From assembly GCF_001677475.2 (NCBI RefSeq), contig NZ_CP012497.1: 64,000 bases of DNA. One strand, 5' to 3'. The notes below the pieces were generated by a model. The model searched no databases. It was not told the origin of the DNA and saw only the letters and a list, made by a program, of their open reading frames with translations. Of the stretch, positions 1,595-42,975 are shown piece after piece. This stretch comes from Escherichia coli. GTDB lineage: Bacteria; Pseudomonadota; Gammaproteobacteria; Enterobacterales; Enterobacteriaceae. How positions within the stretch are numbered: position 1 is the stretch's first letter; every line of letters begins with the position of its first letter. The position numbers and the translations under genes were made by a program.

Positions 1595-2593
1595 TTATCC
1601 GTTACCGCACGACGGTTTCTGCGTGATAAACGTCTCAAGCATCTTTTCCGCAATTGCCGACCAGGTGTGACACTGGACCTTTTCAGCATTTTTCACGCGA
1701 TCAACGCGAGCAATAACCTCATCCCAATCAATCCGCGACTTGATAACCATATGGTTCACCAAAGCCAGGCGATCTGGCGGAAGGCAATCGGGAGGCGTTA
1801 ATACCAACGCCCCGCACATTGCCGCCTCAAGAACAGTTAATCCAAGGCTTTCGGGATGCGTAACGATAAAAACGTCACTCTTACGCAATTCAGCTGCAAA
1901 TTCGGTTGCTGGCACCGGCGTCCGTCTGTATGGAATTACCGAAATATTCCCCGGATCAATGGTAACCAATCCGTCATCAGTCAACGTTCTGGCCTCATAC
2001 GGAACGGTCAGACGCTGAAGGTTCATAAGGATACTTAAGGAGTGATCAAAACCACTAACATCAAATGCAGCGTGGTCTACAAAAATACGCAGAACATCGT
2101 CTGTTTTGGTTTCCAGATGGAACAGATCCTGATTCGCTGCCCATCCAACATGTTTGTTAAAGCGATTATGACGCTCTAACCTGCCGGGATTATCCAGGTA
2201 CCGCCAGGTATCATCGCGGACAGTAAAAGTAATATCGACTGGTGCCGAATCCAGCATAGAACCGTCGTATACCTGGGCTACCCATCCAGTGAATCGACGA
2301 CGCAGTTGCACGCCTATTTCCCTGGGCACCGTAGTAAAATACCGCAATCCTGGCGCTAAAATGGCTTTCGCAGAACACGAGGTCGCAGCGGTCAACACAG
2401 CTTCAACATAATCCTCCGGGCTTTCGACGCTGGGGGAATATGGACGATGGTATTGCAATGTTACCCCTGCCTCACTAAAGGCGCAGGCCAGGTTATAAGC
2501 CCACATTTCCGTATATGTTTTCACATCACTGATAGCTTCAAATTTTCGCCCAATGATCAGGATGTTCATCGGCTTTTCCTCATTCCATTGCAT
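1595..2593 (-). CDS. hypothetical protein downstream of ban (positional equivalent of P1 dbn)
   Basis: 332-aa ORF immediately downstream of and abutting the DnaB-like gene on the same strand. Confidence 0.45.
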   Translation of the reverse strand: MQWNEEKPMNILIIGRKFEAISDVKTYTEMWAYNLACAFSEAGVTLQYHRPYSPSVESPEDYVEAVLTAATSCSAKAILAPGLRYFTTVPREIGVQLRRRFTGWVAQVYDGSMLDSAPVDITFTVRDDTWRYLDNPGRLERHNRFNKHVGWAANQDLFHLETKTDDVLRIFVDHAAFDVSGFDHSLSILMNLQRLTVPYEARTLTDDGLVTIDPGNISVIPYRRTPVPATEFAAELRKSDVFIVTHPESLGLTVLEAAMCGALVLTPPDCLPPDRLALVNHMVIKSRIDWDEVIARVDRVKNAEKVQCHTWSAIAEKMLETFITQKPSCGNG

Positions 2594-4241: not shown

Positions 4242-4317
4242 TGGTGGCCCCTACCGGACTTGAACCGGTGACCGTGCGATTATGAGTCGCCAGCTCTAAC
4301 CACTGAGCTAAAGGGCC
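4242..4317 (-). tRNA. trnI: tRNA with CAU anticodon (Ile2/lysidine-type-like, or Met)
   Basis: Reverse complement folds as a cloverleaf GGCCCTT..GCTCAGTGGTTAGAGC..CTCATAA..GGTTCAAGTCCGG..AGGGGCCACCA; close to the E. coli ileX sequence as recalled; CCA encoded. Confidence 0.8.
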
Positions 4318-5944: not shown

Positions 5945-6020
5945 TGGTGCCGATTAACGGACTCGAACCGCTGACATCCTGCTTACAAGGCAGGCGCTCT
6001 ACCAACTGAGCTAAACCGGC
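5945..6020 (-). tRNA. trnT: tRNA-Thr (anticodon UGU)
   Basis: Reverse complement GCCGGTTTAGCTCAGTTGGTAGAGCGCCTGCCTTGTAAGCAGGATGTCAGCGGTTCGAGTCCGTTAATCGGCACCA folds as a canonical cloverleaf, CCA encoded. Confidence 0.85.
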
Positions 6021-6025
6021 ATTGG

Positions 6026-6098
6026 CGATGGTGGATGGATTTGAACCATCGACCCGTTGATTAACAGTCAACCGCTCTAACCGCTGAGCTACACCATC
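6026..6098 (-). tRNA. trnA: tRNA-Asn (anticodon GUU)
   Basis: Reverse complement GATGGTGTAGCTCAGCGGTTAGAGCGGTTGACTGTTAATCAACGGGTCGATGGTTCAAATCCATCCACCATCG folds as a cloverleaf; 5 nt from the tRNA-Thr. Confidence 0.85.
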
Positions 6099-26568: not shown

Positions 26569-27612
26569 TTAACCTATTGCTACTGGTTTTAACAAACCAG
26601 CATCAAGTAGCTTGCGAGTTAACCACTGCTGGCCTTTACCCGTTAATTGGGGCGTCAGCCGTATCTGGTAGCCATTTTCATCATCCAGCACCACTTCTTT
26701 CACCGTGAAATACCCGGCATTAATGTATTGCTGGCGCGGTACGTTTTTGCGCTCACCAAAAGCCATGAGAATGCCGCTCTGGCGCAACCATGAGAAAAGG
26801 GCGTTTTGCTTAAGTCCAACGACCTTTGCAAAGTTCCCGATCAGGATTCCATTGGCCACTGATACCCGGTCGGCAAAATCGACTTTAGGGGCTGCGGCCA
26901 CCAGCTGTTGTTCCAACTGCATTTTCTGTTCTGCCAACTCGGCAGCCAGGCGTAGAGCTTCTGGTAATGTTTGGGGGATCGATGGGGCAGGGGAGTTTGC
27001 CTGCTGCAATTCTTCCAGTTTGTCGATCAGCGAACGGCGGACCGCTTTTGACTCGCGCGCGGCAACTCGCAGGGCTTGTTTGTAGGTCATGGTTATGACA
27101 ACCATAGGCGTACCGCCACCTGGCGGCACGGTTGCACTTTTTGTGTAACCGTCCTCACCTTCTAATTCGTCGAGTATTTTTTCGATGAATTTATTGTTTC
27201 TAACCAATGGTTCTCCACATAACTTGCGTGCCTCATTGACCATCTTCAACAATGTTTGGCTGTCGATTGTGTCTCCGGTGTTGGGGATGACATTCACGGC
27301 TGGTGCTGGCGTAGCTGAAGCAACAGGTGCTGGTTTTTCAACATTCAAATTATTACCGGTCATTCTATGTGCCTCCTTTCTCATTTCTGCTGCCACTGTT
27401 GCGTAACGTAGACGTCCTTGTTCAATCAAATAATCCCTGATCTCGGCTATCAGTAGCCTGTTGATCACAGCCTTATCTATCCGGGTATAAAAACGCTTGG
27501 TTATCATGAAATAGTTGGCAATTGCGCCGGGGATCTCCCGTGTCGGCATACAGGCAGTATGCAGGGCGATCGCTTCGGCTATTTCATTCCGGGTGACGAG
27601 AGGTTTTTTCAT
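26569..27612 (-). CDS. ant: antirepressor Ant-like protein
   Basis: 347-aa ORF whose C-terminal domain (LPEALRLAAELAEQK..GILIGNFAKVVGL..) is paralogous to the KilA C-terminus; start overlaps the icd stop. Confidence 0.7.
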   Translation of the reverse strand: MKKPLVTRNEIAEAIALHTACMPTREIPGAIANYFMITKRFYTRIDKAVINRLLIAEIRDYLIEQGRLRYATVAAEMRKEAHRMTGNNLNVEKPAPVASATPAPAVNVIPNTGDTIDSQTLLKMVNEARKLCGEPLVRNNKFIEKILDELEGEDGYTKSATVPPGGGTPMVVITMTYKQALRVAARESKAVRRSLIDKLEELQQANSPAPSIPQTLPEALRLAAELAEQKMQLEQQLVAAAPKVDFADRVSVANGILIGNFAKVVGLKQNALFSWLRQSGILMAFGERKNVPRQQYINAGYFTVKEVVLDDENGYQIRLTPQLTGKGQQWLTRKLLDAGLLKPVAIG

Positions 27613-27830
27613 AAACCCCCCTGAACGTCGGCAGAGAAGGGGAGGTTCCAGTAACTAAGTGAATTGCGCGAGTTAGTTGAAAAACGGGCAGTAAAAATGC
27701 AGGGGCCATCAGGCAATTGAGAGCGTGCTTCGTCTTCTGTTGCTGCGATAACGAAGTGATAGTGGTGTTTTTGGCAGGAGTAAAAGCGCCAGATAAATTC
27801 AGGATGAGTAGGGGTAGGGATAGTAGCCAC
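27609..27830 (-). CDS. icd: Icd-like small protein
   Basis: 73-aa ORF overlapping the ant start (ATGA), same size and position as P1 icd. Confidence 0.5.
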   Translation of the reverse strand: MATIPTPTHPEFIWRFYSCQKHHYHFVIAATEDEARSQLPDGPCIFTARFSTNSRNSLSYWNLPFSADVQGGL

Positions 27831-28163
27831 AATGGCAGCCTCCTTTTGCTAATTTAAGGAGCTACCGCGTGAGGTTCCAATCTCAATGGCGGTAGCACTG
27901 ACTGGGTTGGAACTACCGGCGCAAAAGGGAACCGGCCTGCCTTTCGGCAGCCCAGCCAGCACTACCATTGATCTCGGAGCTATGTGCTACGTATGGCTGT
28001 GCGATGGCATGACACAAAAAAAGACGCTTTTGGCGTCTGTGTCGCCTTTTGCATTATCCGGGGTTCCAATCCCGGCATCCATTTTACTAAGATGCCTGTT
28101 TAGGATAAACCGAAAATGCATTAGCACGCAAGCAAGTTAATGTAGCATATGAAGCTAAAAAAA

Positions 28164-28180
28164 TAAAATAATTAGAGCAA
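28164..28180. promoter_or_regulatory. C1 operator-like site (P1 Op51-like) upstream of the icd-ant leader
   Basis: Reverse complement contains TTGCTCTAATTATT, partial consensus match in an AT-rich region. Confidence 0.4.
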
Positions 28181-28327
28181 CTTGTAACCATGTAAATTAT
28201 TTCCCTGGTAACTAAAATGTATGAGTTTAATTGATATGGGTCAAAGATTTTGACCATTGCATGGTGAAACTTTATGCTACAAAATGTTATTTTAAGGCGT
28301 TTTATCTGTGGCAGGAGATAGTTAATC

Positions 28328-28678
28328 ATGTCATCTGAACATGTTCGTAAAGGTGTAACAAATGCGAAATTCAATGAAGAGCAATCTAATATTCTCTTTA
28401 TTGAAATAGGAATTCTGTCAATACTGATAGGTTTAATGTCTAAATCATGGTGGGCCTTTGGCGGTTCTTTTCTTGGACTGATTTTTAGTTTAAGAATAAA
28501 ATTTCTGGCAATACCATTGATGATTGTATTTAGCTTAGTATGGGGAGCTATTGGCTATAGTATTGGTACTTTGTTTGAATCAACAGCAGCAAGTATTGTT
28601 TTGGGGGTAATTGCTTTCCTGAGTGGTTTGGGTACTCATTTTGCTGCCGTGCAATGGGCAAATGATATTGCAGAATAA
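28328..28678 (+). CDS. small polytopic membrane protein (about 4 TM helices)
   Basis: 116-aa ORF with four hydrophobic segments; low GC; first gene of a 3-gene + strand island. Confidence 0.5.
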   Translation: MSSEHVRKGVTNAKFNEEQSNILFIEIGILSILIGLMSKSWWAFGGSFLGLIFSLRIKFLAIPLMIVFSLVWGAIGYSIGTLFESTAASIVLGVIAFLSGLGTHFAAVQWANDIAE

Positions 28679-28700
28679 TTACAGATAAGAAGCGAAAAGA

Positions 28701-29177
28701 ATGAATATGAGATGGTTTTTATTATTTGTATCGTTAGTTTCAGCAGGAACATTTGCAAAAATTGATCCTCTACAATGGAATGTAATTGAAGAGAGAGGGG
28801 GGAGAGAATATACAATCCATAATCATAATGGTGATAAGATAAGTTTTTTATGTGATATGGGATTCATGTATGGTTCACCAGATAGTGCAGGTAGTTTAGG
28901 CTTGTTGCTAAGTTCGTCGAATAATAAAAAAGAGTATAATGCTGACAAGAATAAAATAGTATTAACTATAGATGGTGAGCAATATCCTTTTAGCAATCTT
29001 GGATCAATGGTTGGAGATTCTTGGTGGTATGCCTTTTGGCAAGATGCAGCAGATTCAAATGCTAATATGATTGATGCTTATGTTGATAATGAAAAAATTG
29101 CTACATTCCCTCTTTCTGGGCTAAGTAAGTTGTATCAACAAGCCAAAATGGATGGATGTATTAAACGAGGCAAATGA
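28701..29177 (+). CDS. secreted periplasmic protein
   Basis: 158-aa ORF with signal peptide MNMRWFLLFVSLVSAGTFA; Trp/Tyr-rich; low GC. Confidence 0.5.
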   Translation: MNMRWFLLFVSLVSAGTFAKIDPLQWNVIEERGGREYTIHNHNGDKISFLCDMGFMYGSPDSAGSLGLLLSSSNNKKEYNADKNKIVLTIDGEQYPFSNLGSMVGDSWWYAFWQDAADSNANMIDAYVDNEKIATFPLSGLSKLYQQAKMDGCIKRGK

Positions 29178-29218
29178 TCTTTCTGTGTTAAAGATTAACG
29201 CAATCAATAAAACATTGG

Positions 29219-30286
29219 TTGCGTAATATTCTATTATATAAATGGAATAATATGACAAAAATTACTAATTCTAATGAGTTGAAGTTACTGTATAAACAGT
29301 CAGTGCTCATTCCATCATACAAAGATCACGTAGCGATCTTGCAAAAACAATTAGGAATAGAAAAACATTCTTTTCAAAATATGACAAGATTGAATAGACA
29401 AGCTGTAATTAGTAACTCTCTTCGAAAACAATTGGCTAGTATGCCGAACTTGGCTGGAATAGGCAGCAAGTATCGTGAACATATCGCGATTTTACAGAAA
29501 CAGACTCAGGCTCTTTTCCCTCATGACGCAAATAGATATATTCAAATGCTAAGGAAACAGGCCGAAATAGCTATGCCATTACGAAAACAGCTTGAGGTGC
29601 TTAATAAGCAAGCTGGTTTAAATAACATGCAAGCGATACTTAAAGAATTACAACAAAGTGCAAGTTATAAAACAGATGTAAGCCAAGACATAAAGAAAGT
29701 ACTAGATCACTATGCTAGAACAAGAAATGCTTCATTACATCAAATAATAGAGCAGGGGATTTCATCTATTGCGCAGGCTTATGCTGAAGGTGCTACTGAA
29801 ACATCACACACCAAAAGTAATGTTCAAAATAAAGGATTAAATAAACCTAGCTCAAAGTTTGTTGATTCATTTAAAGAGCTTCCTTATCCACTGCAATGGT
29901 TACTAATGGTTATATTTTCTCAAGTTGTGTTTGGTGCTTTTATTGATTACGGAAAAGAGAAAACCTTGCTGGGAATACACAAGGCAGAATCATATTTTAT
30001 ATCTCTGTTTGAGGATAAACCAATATCAAAACAACAATTAATTAAAGAAAACAAAGAAATTAGTTGGGAAGATCTCAATGGTTTTCGTTTTATAACTGGT
30101 GAGAACGTAAGATTACACGTCAGTCCTTCTATAAATAGTGAGGTGATTGAATGCATTGGCAAAAATACTATAGTGGCTGTTTTAGATAAAAAAGATCGCC
30201 AATGGCTTTTCGTGCAGGTTAAATCAGGGGACGAGTTTATTACTGGATGGATTACACGAACATACACAAAGCCTCTTAAGGCTTGA
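29219..30286 (+). CDS. membrane-anchored coiled-coil protein with C-terminal SH3b-like domain
   Basis: 355-aa ORF with tandem helical repeats (HVAILQKQ, HIAILQKQ, LRKQ), one TM helix (LQWLLMVIFSQVVFGAFIDYG) and an SH3b-like C-terminus (GENVRLHVSPS..IVAVLDKKDRQWLFVQVKSGDEFITGWI); low GC. Confidence 0.5.
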   Translation: MRNILLYKWNNMTKITNSNELKLLYKQSVLIPSYKDHVAILQKQLGIEKHSFQNMTRLNRQAVISNSLRKQLASMPNLAGIGSKYREHIAILQKQTQALFPHDANRYIQMLRKQAEIAMPLRKQLEVLNKQAGLNNMQAILKELQQSASYKTDVSQDIKKVLDHYARTRNASLHQIIEQGISSIAQAYAEGATETSHTKSNVQNKGLNKPSSKFVDSFKELPYPLQWLLMVIFSQVVFGAFIDYGKEKTLLGIHKAESYFISLFEDKPISKQQLIKENKEISWEDLNGFRFITGENVRLHVSPSINSEVIECIGKNTIVAVLDKKDRQWLFVQVKSGDEFITGWITRTYTKPLKA

Positions 30287-41128: not shown

Positions 41129-42975
41129 TACCCTTGCTCCACGCTGGTGACGCCAGCCTGCGCACTGAGTCTGACGCCGGGTTGATCCACTCTGACACTT
41201 TTCACGCGGGCGTCACCTTCCACCACCACACGGATTTCCCCCTGCAACTGCTGCGGAAGGAAAGGATAATTCTGTGTGCCCTGCATACCTGCCCACGGTC
41301 GCGGGTCAGCAATGTTCTTGTCACCCAGCGAACTGAACCAGTCCGTTACCTTACGCCAGACGGACTCGAGCGCTTTCTGGTTGTCCTGACTTTGTTGCGC
41401 GAACTCGCGCTCCCACGGGCTGGCGCTGGGGTCAGCAGCCACAGATTTCGTGAGTGAGTCTGTTTCATCCGGCAGGGCGTATAGTGTTTCCAGACGCTCT
41501 TTTACAGCCATTGCCCCCAGCACAGGACCGAGGATTTTCCCTATAAAACGTCCCCGACCGTTACCTGAACCGCCGGAGTTTTCCGGTAACTCCGGGAGGT
41601 CAGGGAGATCCGGCAGACCACCGTCCTTACCCGGACCAAAGCTGCCCATATTGACCACATAAACAGGTATCACGCCGGAACCAAAAACGTCAGTAATGGC
41701 ACCGGGTATTCCTTTGCCTTTCCCTTTGGGATTCATGATGTCGTGGAGGGTTTTACCTAACTGGTACGTTTTTCTGATGGCGATAATGCCGCCCACAGCA
41801 ATCGCCATATATTTACCGACCTGCAACCAGTTCTGGACGGTATGCTGGTCCACGCTGTTGAGCGCATCCGCCAGCTCCTGAACGGGTTTTGCCAGTTGTC
41901 CTTCAGCAAAACGTTGCCATTCGTTATTCAGTGACTGTATTGCGGCATTAAAGCCTTCGGCATTGGTCTGTGCGGCCTTTTGCGTGGAACCCAGCTCAAT
42001 CGTGCCGTAAATCATTTGTTCCATCAGTTGCCGGTTTTCAGGGTTAAGCAGCGCCTTAATCCCCTGCATTCCGGTCAGATCAAACACATCCTGAAGTTTC
42101 AGCGGATCGTATTTGGCCCGTTTAAGGATTTCCATCATCAGCTCATAGGGCTTTTTGATGTCTTTTGTGCCTTTGACAAAAACGTCAATGCCGTTTTTTT
42201 TCAGGAACTCGATGTTCTTTTTGTCCGACAGGGAAGCATACATGGCCTGAATACTGGTTACCGTCTCATCAATGCTGCCTTTGTTTTTGGCGAACACCTG
42301 AGCAAATGCCCCCATCTGGGCAATGGCTTCCGGTCCCTGATCCTGAATGATGGAAAACAGTTTCGGGGCAGCGCGGGCAACATCGGCAACGCTAACAGAC
42401 CCCACTGCGAACTGCGAATACAGCCTGTCCATCATGTTATTGACCGCCTCAGCACCCCGGACGTTTTTTTCCCAGAACTGGGCCATCAGCCCGGCTGCAA
42501 CCTGTCCGTCAACACCGAACGCCTGCATCATCAACCCCATGTTGCGGAGGTTGTCCACCACATACTGATAATCACCGGTTTTCCCCAGAAGTTCGCTGGC
42601 CCCCTGACCAAGCGCAGAAGCATCAATACGAATATCTTTCTGGTTCGATACATCCCTGATTTTGTCGTGAAGCGTCTTTACCTGTTCAGTGGTTAACTGG
42701 GCATCCGTACCCATCCGGCGCATCTGCGCATCAAAATCGGCAACCTGTTTGATGGTAAGACTACTGCCAAGCCCGGCTATCATTGCCGTGTAGCGGTTAC
42801 CAAGCGTATCAAGGCCGCGTCCTGCGGCCTCCGTTGTGGCTTTGACAAGGCTCATAGCCTTCTGATGGTTCCGGGCGAACTGCGACATATTTGCGCCGTA
42901 CTGCCGGGCTTTGGCGGTCAGGTTCCCGGCAAGGTTGATCATGATTTCCGTGCTGAGACGGTTACCTGTTGCCAT
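41128..42975 (-). CDS. tail tape measure protein
   Basis: 615 aa; helical N-half, Gly-rich segment, downstream of the chaperone frameshift pair. Confidence 0.75.
   Translation of the reverse strand: MATGNRLSTEIMINLAGNLTAKARQYGANMSQFARNHQKAMSLVKATTEAAGRGLDTLGNRYTAMIAGLGSSLTIKQVADFDAQMRRMGTDAQLTTEQVKTLHDKIRDVSNQKDIRIDASALGQGASELLGKTGDYQYVVDNLRNMGLMMQAFGVDGQVAAGLMAQFWEKNVRGAEAVNNMMDRLYSQFAVGSVSVADVARAAPKLFSIIQDQGPEAIAQMGAFAQVFAKNKGSIDETVTSIQAMYASLSDKKNIEFLKKNGIDVFVKGTKDIKKPYELMMEILKRAKYDPLKLQDVFDLTGMQGIKALLNPENRQLMEQMIYGTIELGSTQKAAQTNAEGFNAAIQSLNNEWQRFAEGQLAKPVQELADALNSVDQHTVQNWLQVGKYMAIAVGGIIAIRKTYQLGKTLHDIMNPKGKGKGIPGAITDVFGSGVIPVYVVNMGSFGPGKDGGLPDLPDLPELPENSGGSGNGRGRFIGKILGPVLGAMAVKERLETLYALPDETDSLTKSVAADPSASPWEREFAQQSQDNQKALESVWRKVTDWFSSLGDKNIADPRPWAGMQGTQNYPFLPQQLQGEIRVVVEGDARVKSVRVDQPGVRLSAQAGVTSVEQG

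Follow-up and report, generated by a model that had tools for sequence, protein, structure and literature searches.

The 333-nt interval at positions 27831-28163 lies between an Op51-like operator and the gene icd in the window, by which we mean the whole 64,000-nt stretch of Escherichia coli DNA that was analysed. It raises the question what a stretch with several strong hairpins does directly in front of an anti-repressor operon. We read it as the regulatory leader of an immI-type operon (c4-icd-ant, then kilA-repL) of a P1-like plasmid prophage, encoded on the minus strand, and give this reading a probability of about 0.9. RNA control of an anti-repressor operon by a c4 antisense RNA which is flanked by its own target sites is a well-known kind of element. 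The one described here is an ordinary, uncharacterised allele of the c4 family with an a box of its own, and as such it will not surprise a specialist. The features are collected in Table 1.

Table 1. Features of the c4-icd-ant region in the window; positions count from the first letter of the window.
Feature	Position	Strand	Basis or remark
Op51-like C1 operator GTTGCTCTAATTATTTT, putative	28165..28181	minus	3 mismatches to the 17-bp P1 C1 consensus
Candidate extended -10 TGCTACATT	28139..28147	minus	aligned to the annotated -10 of P1 P2c4/P51a (ATGCTATCTT)
Candidate promoter TTGCGT-18 nt-TATCCT	28102..28131	minus	P1c4/P51b position, alignment with P1
isrK-type leader RNA	28017..28095	minus	Rfam isrK RF01394
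Leader hairpin 1	28095..28075	minus	
a1 hairpin, stem CCGGG/CCCGG	28074..28057	minus	
a1 box UUGGAAC, in loop	28063..28069	minus	exact complement of c4 a'
b1 box GCAAAAGG	28045..28052	minus	exact complement of c4 b'
Intrinsic terminator AGACGC-CAAAA-GCGUCU then U7	28015..28038	minus	terminator scan
c4 antisense RNA, Rfam match	27885..27972	minus	RF01695 76.7 bits; fold z = -5.5; compensatory pairs
Predicted mature c4, 79 nt	27966..27888	minus	homology with the annotated 77-nt c4 of P1
b' box CCUUUUGC	27921..27928	minus	12-nt loop of second inner c4 hairpin
a' box GUUCCAA	27907..27913	minus	unpaired joiner of c4
39-codon open reading frame coincident with c4	27849..27968	minus	PGAP 'ash family protein' in 99.5% identical plasmid
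84-codon open reading frame	27886-28140	plus	open reading frame
Alternative hairpin GCUACCGC/GCGGUAGC	27861..27896	minus	z = -3.2
a2 box UUGGAAC, in loop of alternative hairpin	27880..27874	minus	exact complement of c4 a'
b2 box GCAAAAGG	27849..27842	minus	exact complement of b'
icd Shine-Dalgarno AAGGAGG	27846..27840	minus	overlaps b2
icd, GUG start at 27830, 73 aa	27609..27830	minus	NCBIfam phage_ICD_like 53.2 bits; 96% identical to P1/P7
ant, 347 aa anti-repressor, KilAC domain	26569..27612	minus	Pfam ANT PF03374 105 bits; 96% to P1 ant1

Genomic setting and relation to P1 and P7

All regulatory parts and the operon itself are located on the minus strand. The genes downstream on this strand represent the immI/lytic-replicon block of P1, namely icd, ant, a gene for a second KilAC protein and a RepL-like open reading frame. 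The icd stop overlaps the ant start (AUGA), and together with the icd-ant order this gives, as far as the layout goes, the arrangement for control of an anti-repressor via a coupled upstream gene.

The same 401 bases are present in 340 plasmid records and in 303 out of 5426 complete E. coli genomes, in the latter nearly always on plasmids; the best matches to this stretch are 99.5% identical, such as p08_3342-2 (NZ_CP077553.1) and CP099272.1. In megablast comparisons icd and ant share 96% identity with P1 and P7 as far as about position 27803, where the similarity to P1 ends. The leader resembles those of the plasmid prophages D6 (88%), JL22 (84%) and RCS47 (82%), and for the RNA part alone the identity to these three is 91-94%. 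The combination of P1-like icd/ant genes with a D6/RCS47-like leader means that the window represents a mosaic P1-like phage-plasmid.

The immI regions of P1 and P7 show the same order of operator, a1, b1, c4, a2, b2/ribosome-binding site, icd, ant, kilA and repL, and in the P1 annotation c4, a1, b1, a2, b2, Op51 and two promoters follow each other as in the window. The c4 fold, the overlap of b2 with the icd ribosome-binding site and the icd/ant overlap are likewise common to P1, P7 and the window, and the annotated b2 of P1 has the same layout as b2 here. In contrast, the leader from about 27803 onwards is not P1-like at the megablast level, and neither the a nor the b box is that of P1 or P7. 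Compared with P1 the window has a stronger, canonical terminator, a c4 which is about 2 nt longer and an icd which starts with GUG. PMC8198154 gives a summary of what C4, Icd and Ant do in P1 and also cites the original work on c4/immI of P1/P7 (Citron and Schuster 1990).

The c4 RNA and its target boxes

The sequence-only reading had called a c4-like regulatory RNA plausible at this place and had named a covariance-model search as a check. An Rfam scan of the whole window gave a full-length match (1-87) to the C4 antisense RNA (RF01695) at 27972..27885 on the minus strand, with 76.7 bits against a gathering score of 45 and an E value of 3e-13. Inside the interval two matches exceed their gathering scores, C4 and isrK, and both lie on the minus strand. 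The C4 match, the exact target boxes and the co-variation of these boxes with c4 across phages, both described below, all bear the suggestion out. What we observed directly comprises the family membership, the structure, the exact boxes with their co-variation and the gene order.

Three hairpins had been described from the letters, and all are present within a few bases of the positions given for them. The 8-bp stem consists of GCTACCGC and GCGGTAGC at 27861-27868 and 27889-27896 and had been placed at about 27863-27900, while CTGCC-TTTC-GGCAG is found at 27937-27950, some 5-8 nt away from the position assigned to it (about 27942-27958). An A-run (28016-28022) is followed by GACGC-TTTT-GGCGTC (28023-28037), and the intrinsic terminator claimed here for the minus strand was also flagged by a terminator scan. 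These three hairpins are, in the same order, the a2 hairpin, the first inner hairpin of c4 and the terminator of the leader. Reading the region as c4-like was therefore right for the c4 RNA itself, but the 8-bp hairpin lies outside mature c4, and the terminator hairpin closes a separate isrK-type leader.

As minus-strand RNA the 88-nt c4 stretch folds with -46.4 kcal/mol (z = -5.5, 0 of 200 shuffles equally good), and its minimum-free-energy structure reproduces the defining fold of c4 with a long outer stem, two hairpins and an unpaired joiner. An RNA encoded on the plus strand can be excluded by the fold of the complementary stretch (only -32.0 kcal/mol, z = -1.4), the absence of an Rfam match on that strand and the U run, which stands on the wrong side. 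An alignment of 60 c4 sequences including the one from the window (MAFFT/RNAalifold), which was made independently of the Rfam model, contains 27 pairs, and compensatory changes occur in 16 of them; the second hairpin adds nothing in this respect, as its stem was prescribed by our search pattern. The predicted mature c4 has a G at its 5' end, and its 3' end lies just inside GCCA. With this G and a stem that is followed by GCCA, the sequence would be compatible with maturation by RNase P.

Complementarity to the target region, which had been named as a further check and could not be found by eye, is present and exact at a1, b1, a2 and b2. The a' box GUUCCAA of c4 matches UUGGAAC over 7 nt both upstream (a1) and downstream (a2), and the b' box CCUUUUGC matches GCAAAAGG over 8 nt, again upstream (b1) and downstream (b2). 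We compared predicted duplex energies at the level of the boxes and discarded a full-length duplexfold of c4 against the leaders, which ignores intramolecular structure. The cognate b duplex is predicted at -9.5 kcal/mol; values for the a duplexes are given below. Extra a and b words in the window (26916..26910 and 41983..41976) are not adjacent and were rejected as a third c4 target. Relaxed tandem a/b matches elsewhere in the window contain mismatches and look like chance.

The 8-bp hairpin, which carries a2 in its loop, folds as minus-strand RNA with -18.9 kcal/mol (z = -3.2), and 2 of 200 shuffles were equally good. Its 5' arm is at the same time the 3' strand of the c4 outer stem, so that it represents an alternative to this stem. 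An equivalent complement of at least 6 nt to the 3' strand of the c4 stem was found just downstream in 70 of 92 c4 loci, compared with 4 of 92 in a control region.

Across phages the a and b boxes change together as triplets, which could be followed in P1, P7, D6, JL22, RCS47, Gifsy-1 and about 90 viral contigs. In the window a1/a2 read UUGGAAC with a' GUUCCAA, and b1/b2 read GCAAAAGG with b' CCUUUUGC. D6 and JL22 have the same b triplet (GCAAAAGG with CCUUUUGC) together with UUGAGAC at a1/a2 and GUCUCAA at a'. RCS47 shares this a triplet (UUGAGAC/GUCUCAA) and carries GUCAAAGG at b1/b2 with CCUUUGAC at b'. In P1 the boxes are UUGACAG (a1/a2), CUGUCAA (a'), GUUAGUG (b1/b2) and CACUAAC (b'), in P7 UUAGCAG, CUGCUAA, GAUUGUG and CACAAUC, respectively. 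D6, JL22 and RCS47 thus resemble the window in their c4 leader (88-94% identical), in the isrK-type leader, the terminator and the a2 hairpin, and D6 and JL22 also in the b box. They differ from it in the a triplet at all three sites, RCS47 additionally in the b triplet, and their downstream anti-repressor genes are not of the P1 ant type.

To cover more loci, c4-like sequences were gathered from viral contigs with a search pattern which leaves both boxes free, and 98 unique matches were obtained. An exact 7-nt complement of a' was found 55-121 nt upstream in 69 of these 98 and 3-9 nt downstream in 72, while in the reverse-complemented flanks, which served as control, only one was found upstream and none downstream. 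Complements of the loop of at least 7 nt (b1/b2) occur upstream in 58 of 98 and downstream in 65 of 98 (controls 8 and 2).

The a box of the window is unlike those of P1, P7, D6, JL22 and RCS47. Because of this difference, and because a' is predicted to pair with its own site at -7.3 kcal/mol but with the a site of D6 at only -0.8 kcal/mol, the element likely has, judged from its sequence, a distinct immI specificity. The heteroimmunity of P1 and P7 is known to arise from small differences in immI (PMC6906374).

The isrK-type leader and its possible role

The second Rfam match is to isrK (RF01394), a family of Hfq-binding RNAs. It is full-length (1-77), extends over 28095..28017 on the minus strand and reaches 58.9 bits, with a gathering score of 50. 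This leader ends in the intrinsic terminator mentioned above, the hairpin of which has -7.3 kcal/mol. A terminator-like hairpin with a U run between a1 and c4 is present in 80 of 92 c4 loci, compared with 16 in the control. A permissive scan also places the c4-a1b1 model (RF03163) on the two hairpins at the 5' side of the isrK match, but its 18.3 bits stay below the threshold of 46.7; the leader is classed as isrK-type and not as a scored RF03163 member, though the functional boxes are present. In P1 the relation is different, with only 35.1 bits for isrK and 51.0 bits for c4-a1b1. Leaders of the isrK type are also found in D6, JL22 and Gifsy-1, and in 13 of 16 diverse viral loci isrK is located directly upstream of C4.

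Upstream of the leader, GTTGCTCTAATTATTTT aligns with the annotated Op51/Oc4 of P1 and P7, and six C1-operator-like sites were found in the window where 0.17 would be expected. Both candidate promoters are weak consensus matches that came to light only through alignment, and the one at 28102..28131 was not listed by the promoter scan. Because the terminator stands between these promoters and c4, and the promoter scan detected no minus-strand promoter between terminator and c4, we take c4 to need read-through.

For the processing of c4, for repression and for the role of the a1b1 leader we infer the following course from the genetics of P1/P7 and from the experiments on Gifsy-1. Transcription would start downstream of the Op51-like operator, at which C1 would act. 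The transcript would first hold the isrK-type leader with a1 in a hairpin loop, b1 beside it and a moderate intrinsic terminator at the end. Transcripts reading through this terminator would contain the tRNA-like c4 RNA, which is presumably excised by RNase P as in P1. With its unpaired a' and b', c4 could then bind to a2 and b2 in the mRNA of the same operon, which would block the icd ribosome-binding site and leave the anti-repressor Ant switched off in the lysogen. This effect on Ant is to be expected from the overlap between b2 and the ribosome-binding site of icd and from the translational coupling of ant to icd (AUGA).

In this scheme the leader could be no more than a passive extra target. 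It is also conceivable that it is an active regulator, in that a terminated IsrK-like RNA of about 80 nt pairs via a1/b1 with c4 or the c4 precursor and so switches icd/ant on; we hold this to be possible, with the odds somewhat against it. The same caution applies to how it might work: c4 may be titrated or the long transcript refolded, and c4 bound at b1 may shift the balance towards termination and so hold down its own production, in the manner of the P4 CI RNA. In the immunity system of the satellite phage P4 the CI RNA is likewise a small RNA which is cut from the leader of the very operon under its control, with complementary sites upstream and downstream, but it works by ending transcription prematurely and without any anti-repressor.

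Most of what speaks for an active leader comes from Gifsy-1 (NC_010392), where isrK (79.3 bits), c4-a1b1 (48.1 bits, above threshold) and C4 (69.0 bits) stand in tandem directly before the anti-repressor gene anrP. Gifsy-1 differs from the window in being a lambdoid chromosomal prophage without icd and in its boxes (UUGGCG/CGCCAA). Its terminator gives short and long isoforms, an RNA of about 80 nt (STnc1160) is processed from the read-through transcript, and translation of anrP increases more than 100-fold when short IsrK is provided in trans (PMC4825925). If +1 of IsrK is set at L007 34316, the mutant bases of that study (C18, G28, G31, A107, U120/G121, C159, C162 and G173) all fit, and the pairs G28-C162 and G31-C159, which are supported by the mutations, turn out to be a1:a' pairs. 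The authors likened the IsrK system to the P4 CI RNA, and P1, c4 and RNase P do not occur in their paper (PMC4825925). In the papers we searched we did not find a link between isrK and P1 c4 stated; one on APSE phages lists both as separate ncRNA families. A blastn search of the leader against phages does not match Gifsy-1, and the link becomes visible with covariance models only.

An active leader is further favoured by the frequent position of isrK in front of C4 and the common terminator, and by the sequence around b1. In 41 of 44 unique loci the 4-5 nt straddling the b1 3' end (GGCG, GCGC, GGCGG) find their complement in the terminator, either in its 5' strand or in its loop, and in 23 of the 44 the predicted terminator probability falls within the lowest 10% of shuffles. 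When b1 of the window is masked, the predicted probability of its terminator rises from 0.50 to 0.81. On the other side, the case for the window is one of analogy or of thermodynamic prediction on short segments, and as the loci are related these counts are not independent. Moreover, the a1 and b1 sites of P1 are annotated only as 'putative', and in Gifsy-1 constitutive expression of orf45/STnc1160 failed to counteract IsrK toxicity. By analogy with Gifsy-1, our data suggest that some of the transcripts of the window stop at 28017 and give an RNA of about 80 nt with a1 and b1, which would be able to pair with c4 and to oppose it. According to the folding model, binding of c4 at b1 might favour termination.

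Open reading frames, 'Ash' proteins and wider relationships

The interval had been described as free of open reading frames, which is not the case, since it contains a 39-codon frame on the minus strand and an 84-codon frame on the plus strand. Neither of them shows evidence of coding constraint. The 84-codon frame was rejected as a gene, having no Pfam or NCBIfam match, and it is conserved because it runs antisense to two conserved RNAs.

The 39-codon frame needs a closer look. In the PGAP annotation of a 99.5% identical plasmid a CDS is drawn here and no RNA gene, and the translation matches the Pfam family Phage_ASH (PF10554) with 33 bits (cut-off 26). The c4 stretch could therefore be, alone or in addition, a small protein gene or upstream open reading frame of the Ash/orf45 kind (27968..27849). 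Translation of unprocessed read-through transcripts would then open the a2 hairpin and bring ribosomes to the icd start, and the UAG stop of the frame does indeed abut b2. Among 83 loci the frame which begins at the conserved AUG stays open for at least 35 codons in 75, compared with 46 and 13 for the other frames, and it often continues in frame into the downstream Rha/Ant gene. In Gifsy-1, orf45 begins at the AUG at the c4 5' end and continues through a2/b2. There its frame overlaps anrP (AUGA), which is a difference from the window, and it has been interpreted as a coding upstream frame: it was detected as tagged protein and reported to be translated, and its first AUG is needed for full anrP activation (PMC4825925).

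Against this stands the pattern of variation. In 59 c4 sequences no codon periodicity can be seen (mean column entropy 0.887, 0.861 and 0.899), while 16 of the 27 RNA pairs show compensatory change, and orf45 was itself reported to be conserved in nucleotides and not in amino acids (PMC4825925). In the experimentally characterised P1 and P7 the frame runs into a stop after 14 and 31 codons, respectively. The AUG lies across the place that corresponds to the 5' end of mature P1 c4, and processing would therefore destroy the start codon; the effect of the AUG mutation in Gifsy-1 may thus be exerted through processing. In the window the AUG is not preceded by a clear Shine-Dalgarno sequence. Positions 49-106 of the Phage_ASH profile correspond in other loci to c4 plus downstream leader, sometimes in frame with a gene for a Rha-domain protein, and we conclude that the Pfam family 'Ash' is partly a translation of c4. 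The 39-codon frame is probably not a protein gene. A part played as upstream frame on unprocessed transcripts is unlikely, with a small chance left for it.

That the hairpins are unrelated local features, either chance stems or the terminator of a neighbouring gene, is extremely improbable: single hairpins are short, and UUGGAAC and GCAAAAGG each recur once elsewhere in the window, but two Rfam matches exceed their gathering scores, compensatory co-variation is strong, the boxes co-vary at position-specific spacing in about 90 loci with near-zero controls, and it is only on the minus strand, that of c4-icd-ant, that the terminator stem has a U run behind it.

For the window itself the c4 leader is of little importance, as it represents the secondary-immunity control one expects in a P1-like plasmid prophage. 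The joint change of the a box at all three sites predicts a separate immI specificity and shows the mix-and-match exchange of boxes among phage-plasmids. Where the RNA gene sits, the public records of near-identical plasmids carry a protein under the name 'ash family protein'.

What is new is confined to the wider link, in which IsrK corresponds to the a1b1 leader, orf45/STnc1160 and 'Ash' correspond to c4, and the terminator may respond to c4. More tentatively still than for the leader of the window, we propose that the upstream a1/b1 sites of c4 systems may belong to a separate terminated small RNA, the IsrK of Salmonella, which would act as an anti-antisense RNA against c4 by sponging or refolding and would end in a terminator responsive to c4 at b1. 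If this is true, immI of the P1 type would be a switch of three RNAs (leader sRNA, c4 and mRNA) that is widespread in temperate phages, and both the published IsrK-orf45 mechanism and the 'Ash family protein' of Pfam and PGAP would be readings of a c4 gene. Through the comparison three entries that are curated apart from each other, namely isrK in Rfam, c4-a1b1 together with C4 in Rfam, and Phage_ASH in Pfam together with the 'orf45' of Gifsy-1, are tied to one RNA module, and this may give reason to look again at how IsrK works and at what a1/b1 do in P1.

The Gifsy-1 IsrK locus and paired c4 modules

When the Rfam models are applied to the Salmonella prophage Gifsy-1 (NC_010392, 34329..34073, minus strand), the isrK and c4-a1b1 leader models score 79.3 and 48.1 bits and the C4 model scores 69.0 bits. 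By Rfam, isrK-orf45-anrP as published forms a c4 module with all its parts, in which c4 occupies the same place as 'orf45' and STnc1160. The pairs G28-C162 and G31-C159, for which mutational support has been reported (PMC4825925), are pairs between the upstream target box a1 and the c4 box a'. Neither P1 c4 nor RNase P appears in that paper.

In several viral contigs (L049, L080, L093, L095 and L123) there is a pair of c4 modules, separated by 0.5-0.9 kb, and the a'/b' boxes of the two differ. In D6 a weak second c4-like match (2263-2342; 40.2 bits, below threshold) lies about 470 nt upstream of the main c4.

Open frames and the Ash protein family

Conceptual translation of c4 together with its a2/b2 leader matches positions 49-106 of the Pfam profile PF10554 (Ash protein family), and in near-identical plasmids PGAP labels the ORF spanning c4 'ash family protein', without any c4 RNA feature there. 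Since codon periodicity is absent from the c4 sequences, the part of PF10554 covering c4 may be a translated RNA gene. The frame starting at the AUG of the c4 5' end stays open for at least 35 codons in 75 of 83 c4 loci among the comparison sequences L001-L127 (46 and 13 for the other frames), a count in which selection is not separable from shared ancestry and G+C-rich stems. This frame often runs on into the downstream Rha/Ant gene, reaching lengths of 110-443 codons.

P1-like surroundings

Whereas in P1 the sim superimmunity genes adjoin Op51, the window has three other ORFs instead, annotated in plasmid p08_3342-2 (NZ_CP077553.1) as two hypothetical proteins (116 and 158 aa) and an SH3 domain-containing protein (355 aa); Pfam gave no match for the first two. 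The P1 C1-operator consensus is matched six times in the window against 0.17 expected, and one of these sites, with a single mismatch, precedes a kilA-like gene at the position of Op53. These sites and the tRNA genes are consistent with a P1-like genome.

Coordinates of features in the window and in comparison sequences (L numbers)
Feature	Position	Strand	Remark
ORFs in place of sim	28328-30286	plus	116 aa, membrane-like; 158 aa; 355 aa
Three tRNA genes	4245-4317, 5948-6020, 6026-6098	minus	
Six operator-like sites	6753, 6764, 11307, 26474, 28165, 35775		P1 C1-operator consensus match
b1 3' end/terminator complementarity	28040-28052 with 28022-28038	minus	
PF10554-matching c4 translation	27849-27968	minus	Pfam
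PF10554-matching c4 translations elsewhere	L006 2733-2852; L012 522-1202; L011 7275-7772; L014 5163-5492		Pfam

Predicted terminators in the c4 leader

Like the window, P1 has a terminator-like hairpin between b1 and c4 (2171..2090, minus strand), consisting of ACCGCAG...UGCGGU followed by AUUUUUGUGUC; the isrK model scores 35.1 bits here, below threshold, and the P1 GenBank annotation lists no terminator between b1 and c4. In 41 of 44 unique viral loci a short GGCG/GCGC sequence astride the b1 3' end has its complement in the 5' strand or the loop of the leader terminator. Possibly this sequence is an anti-terminator, which pairing with c4 would disrupt.
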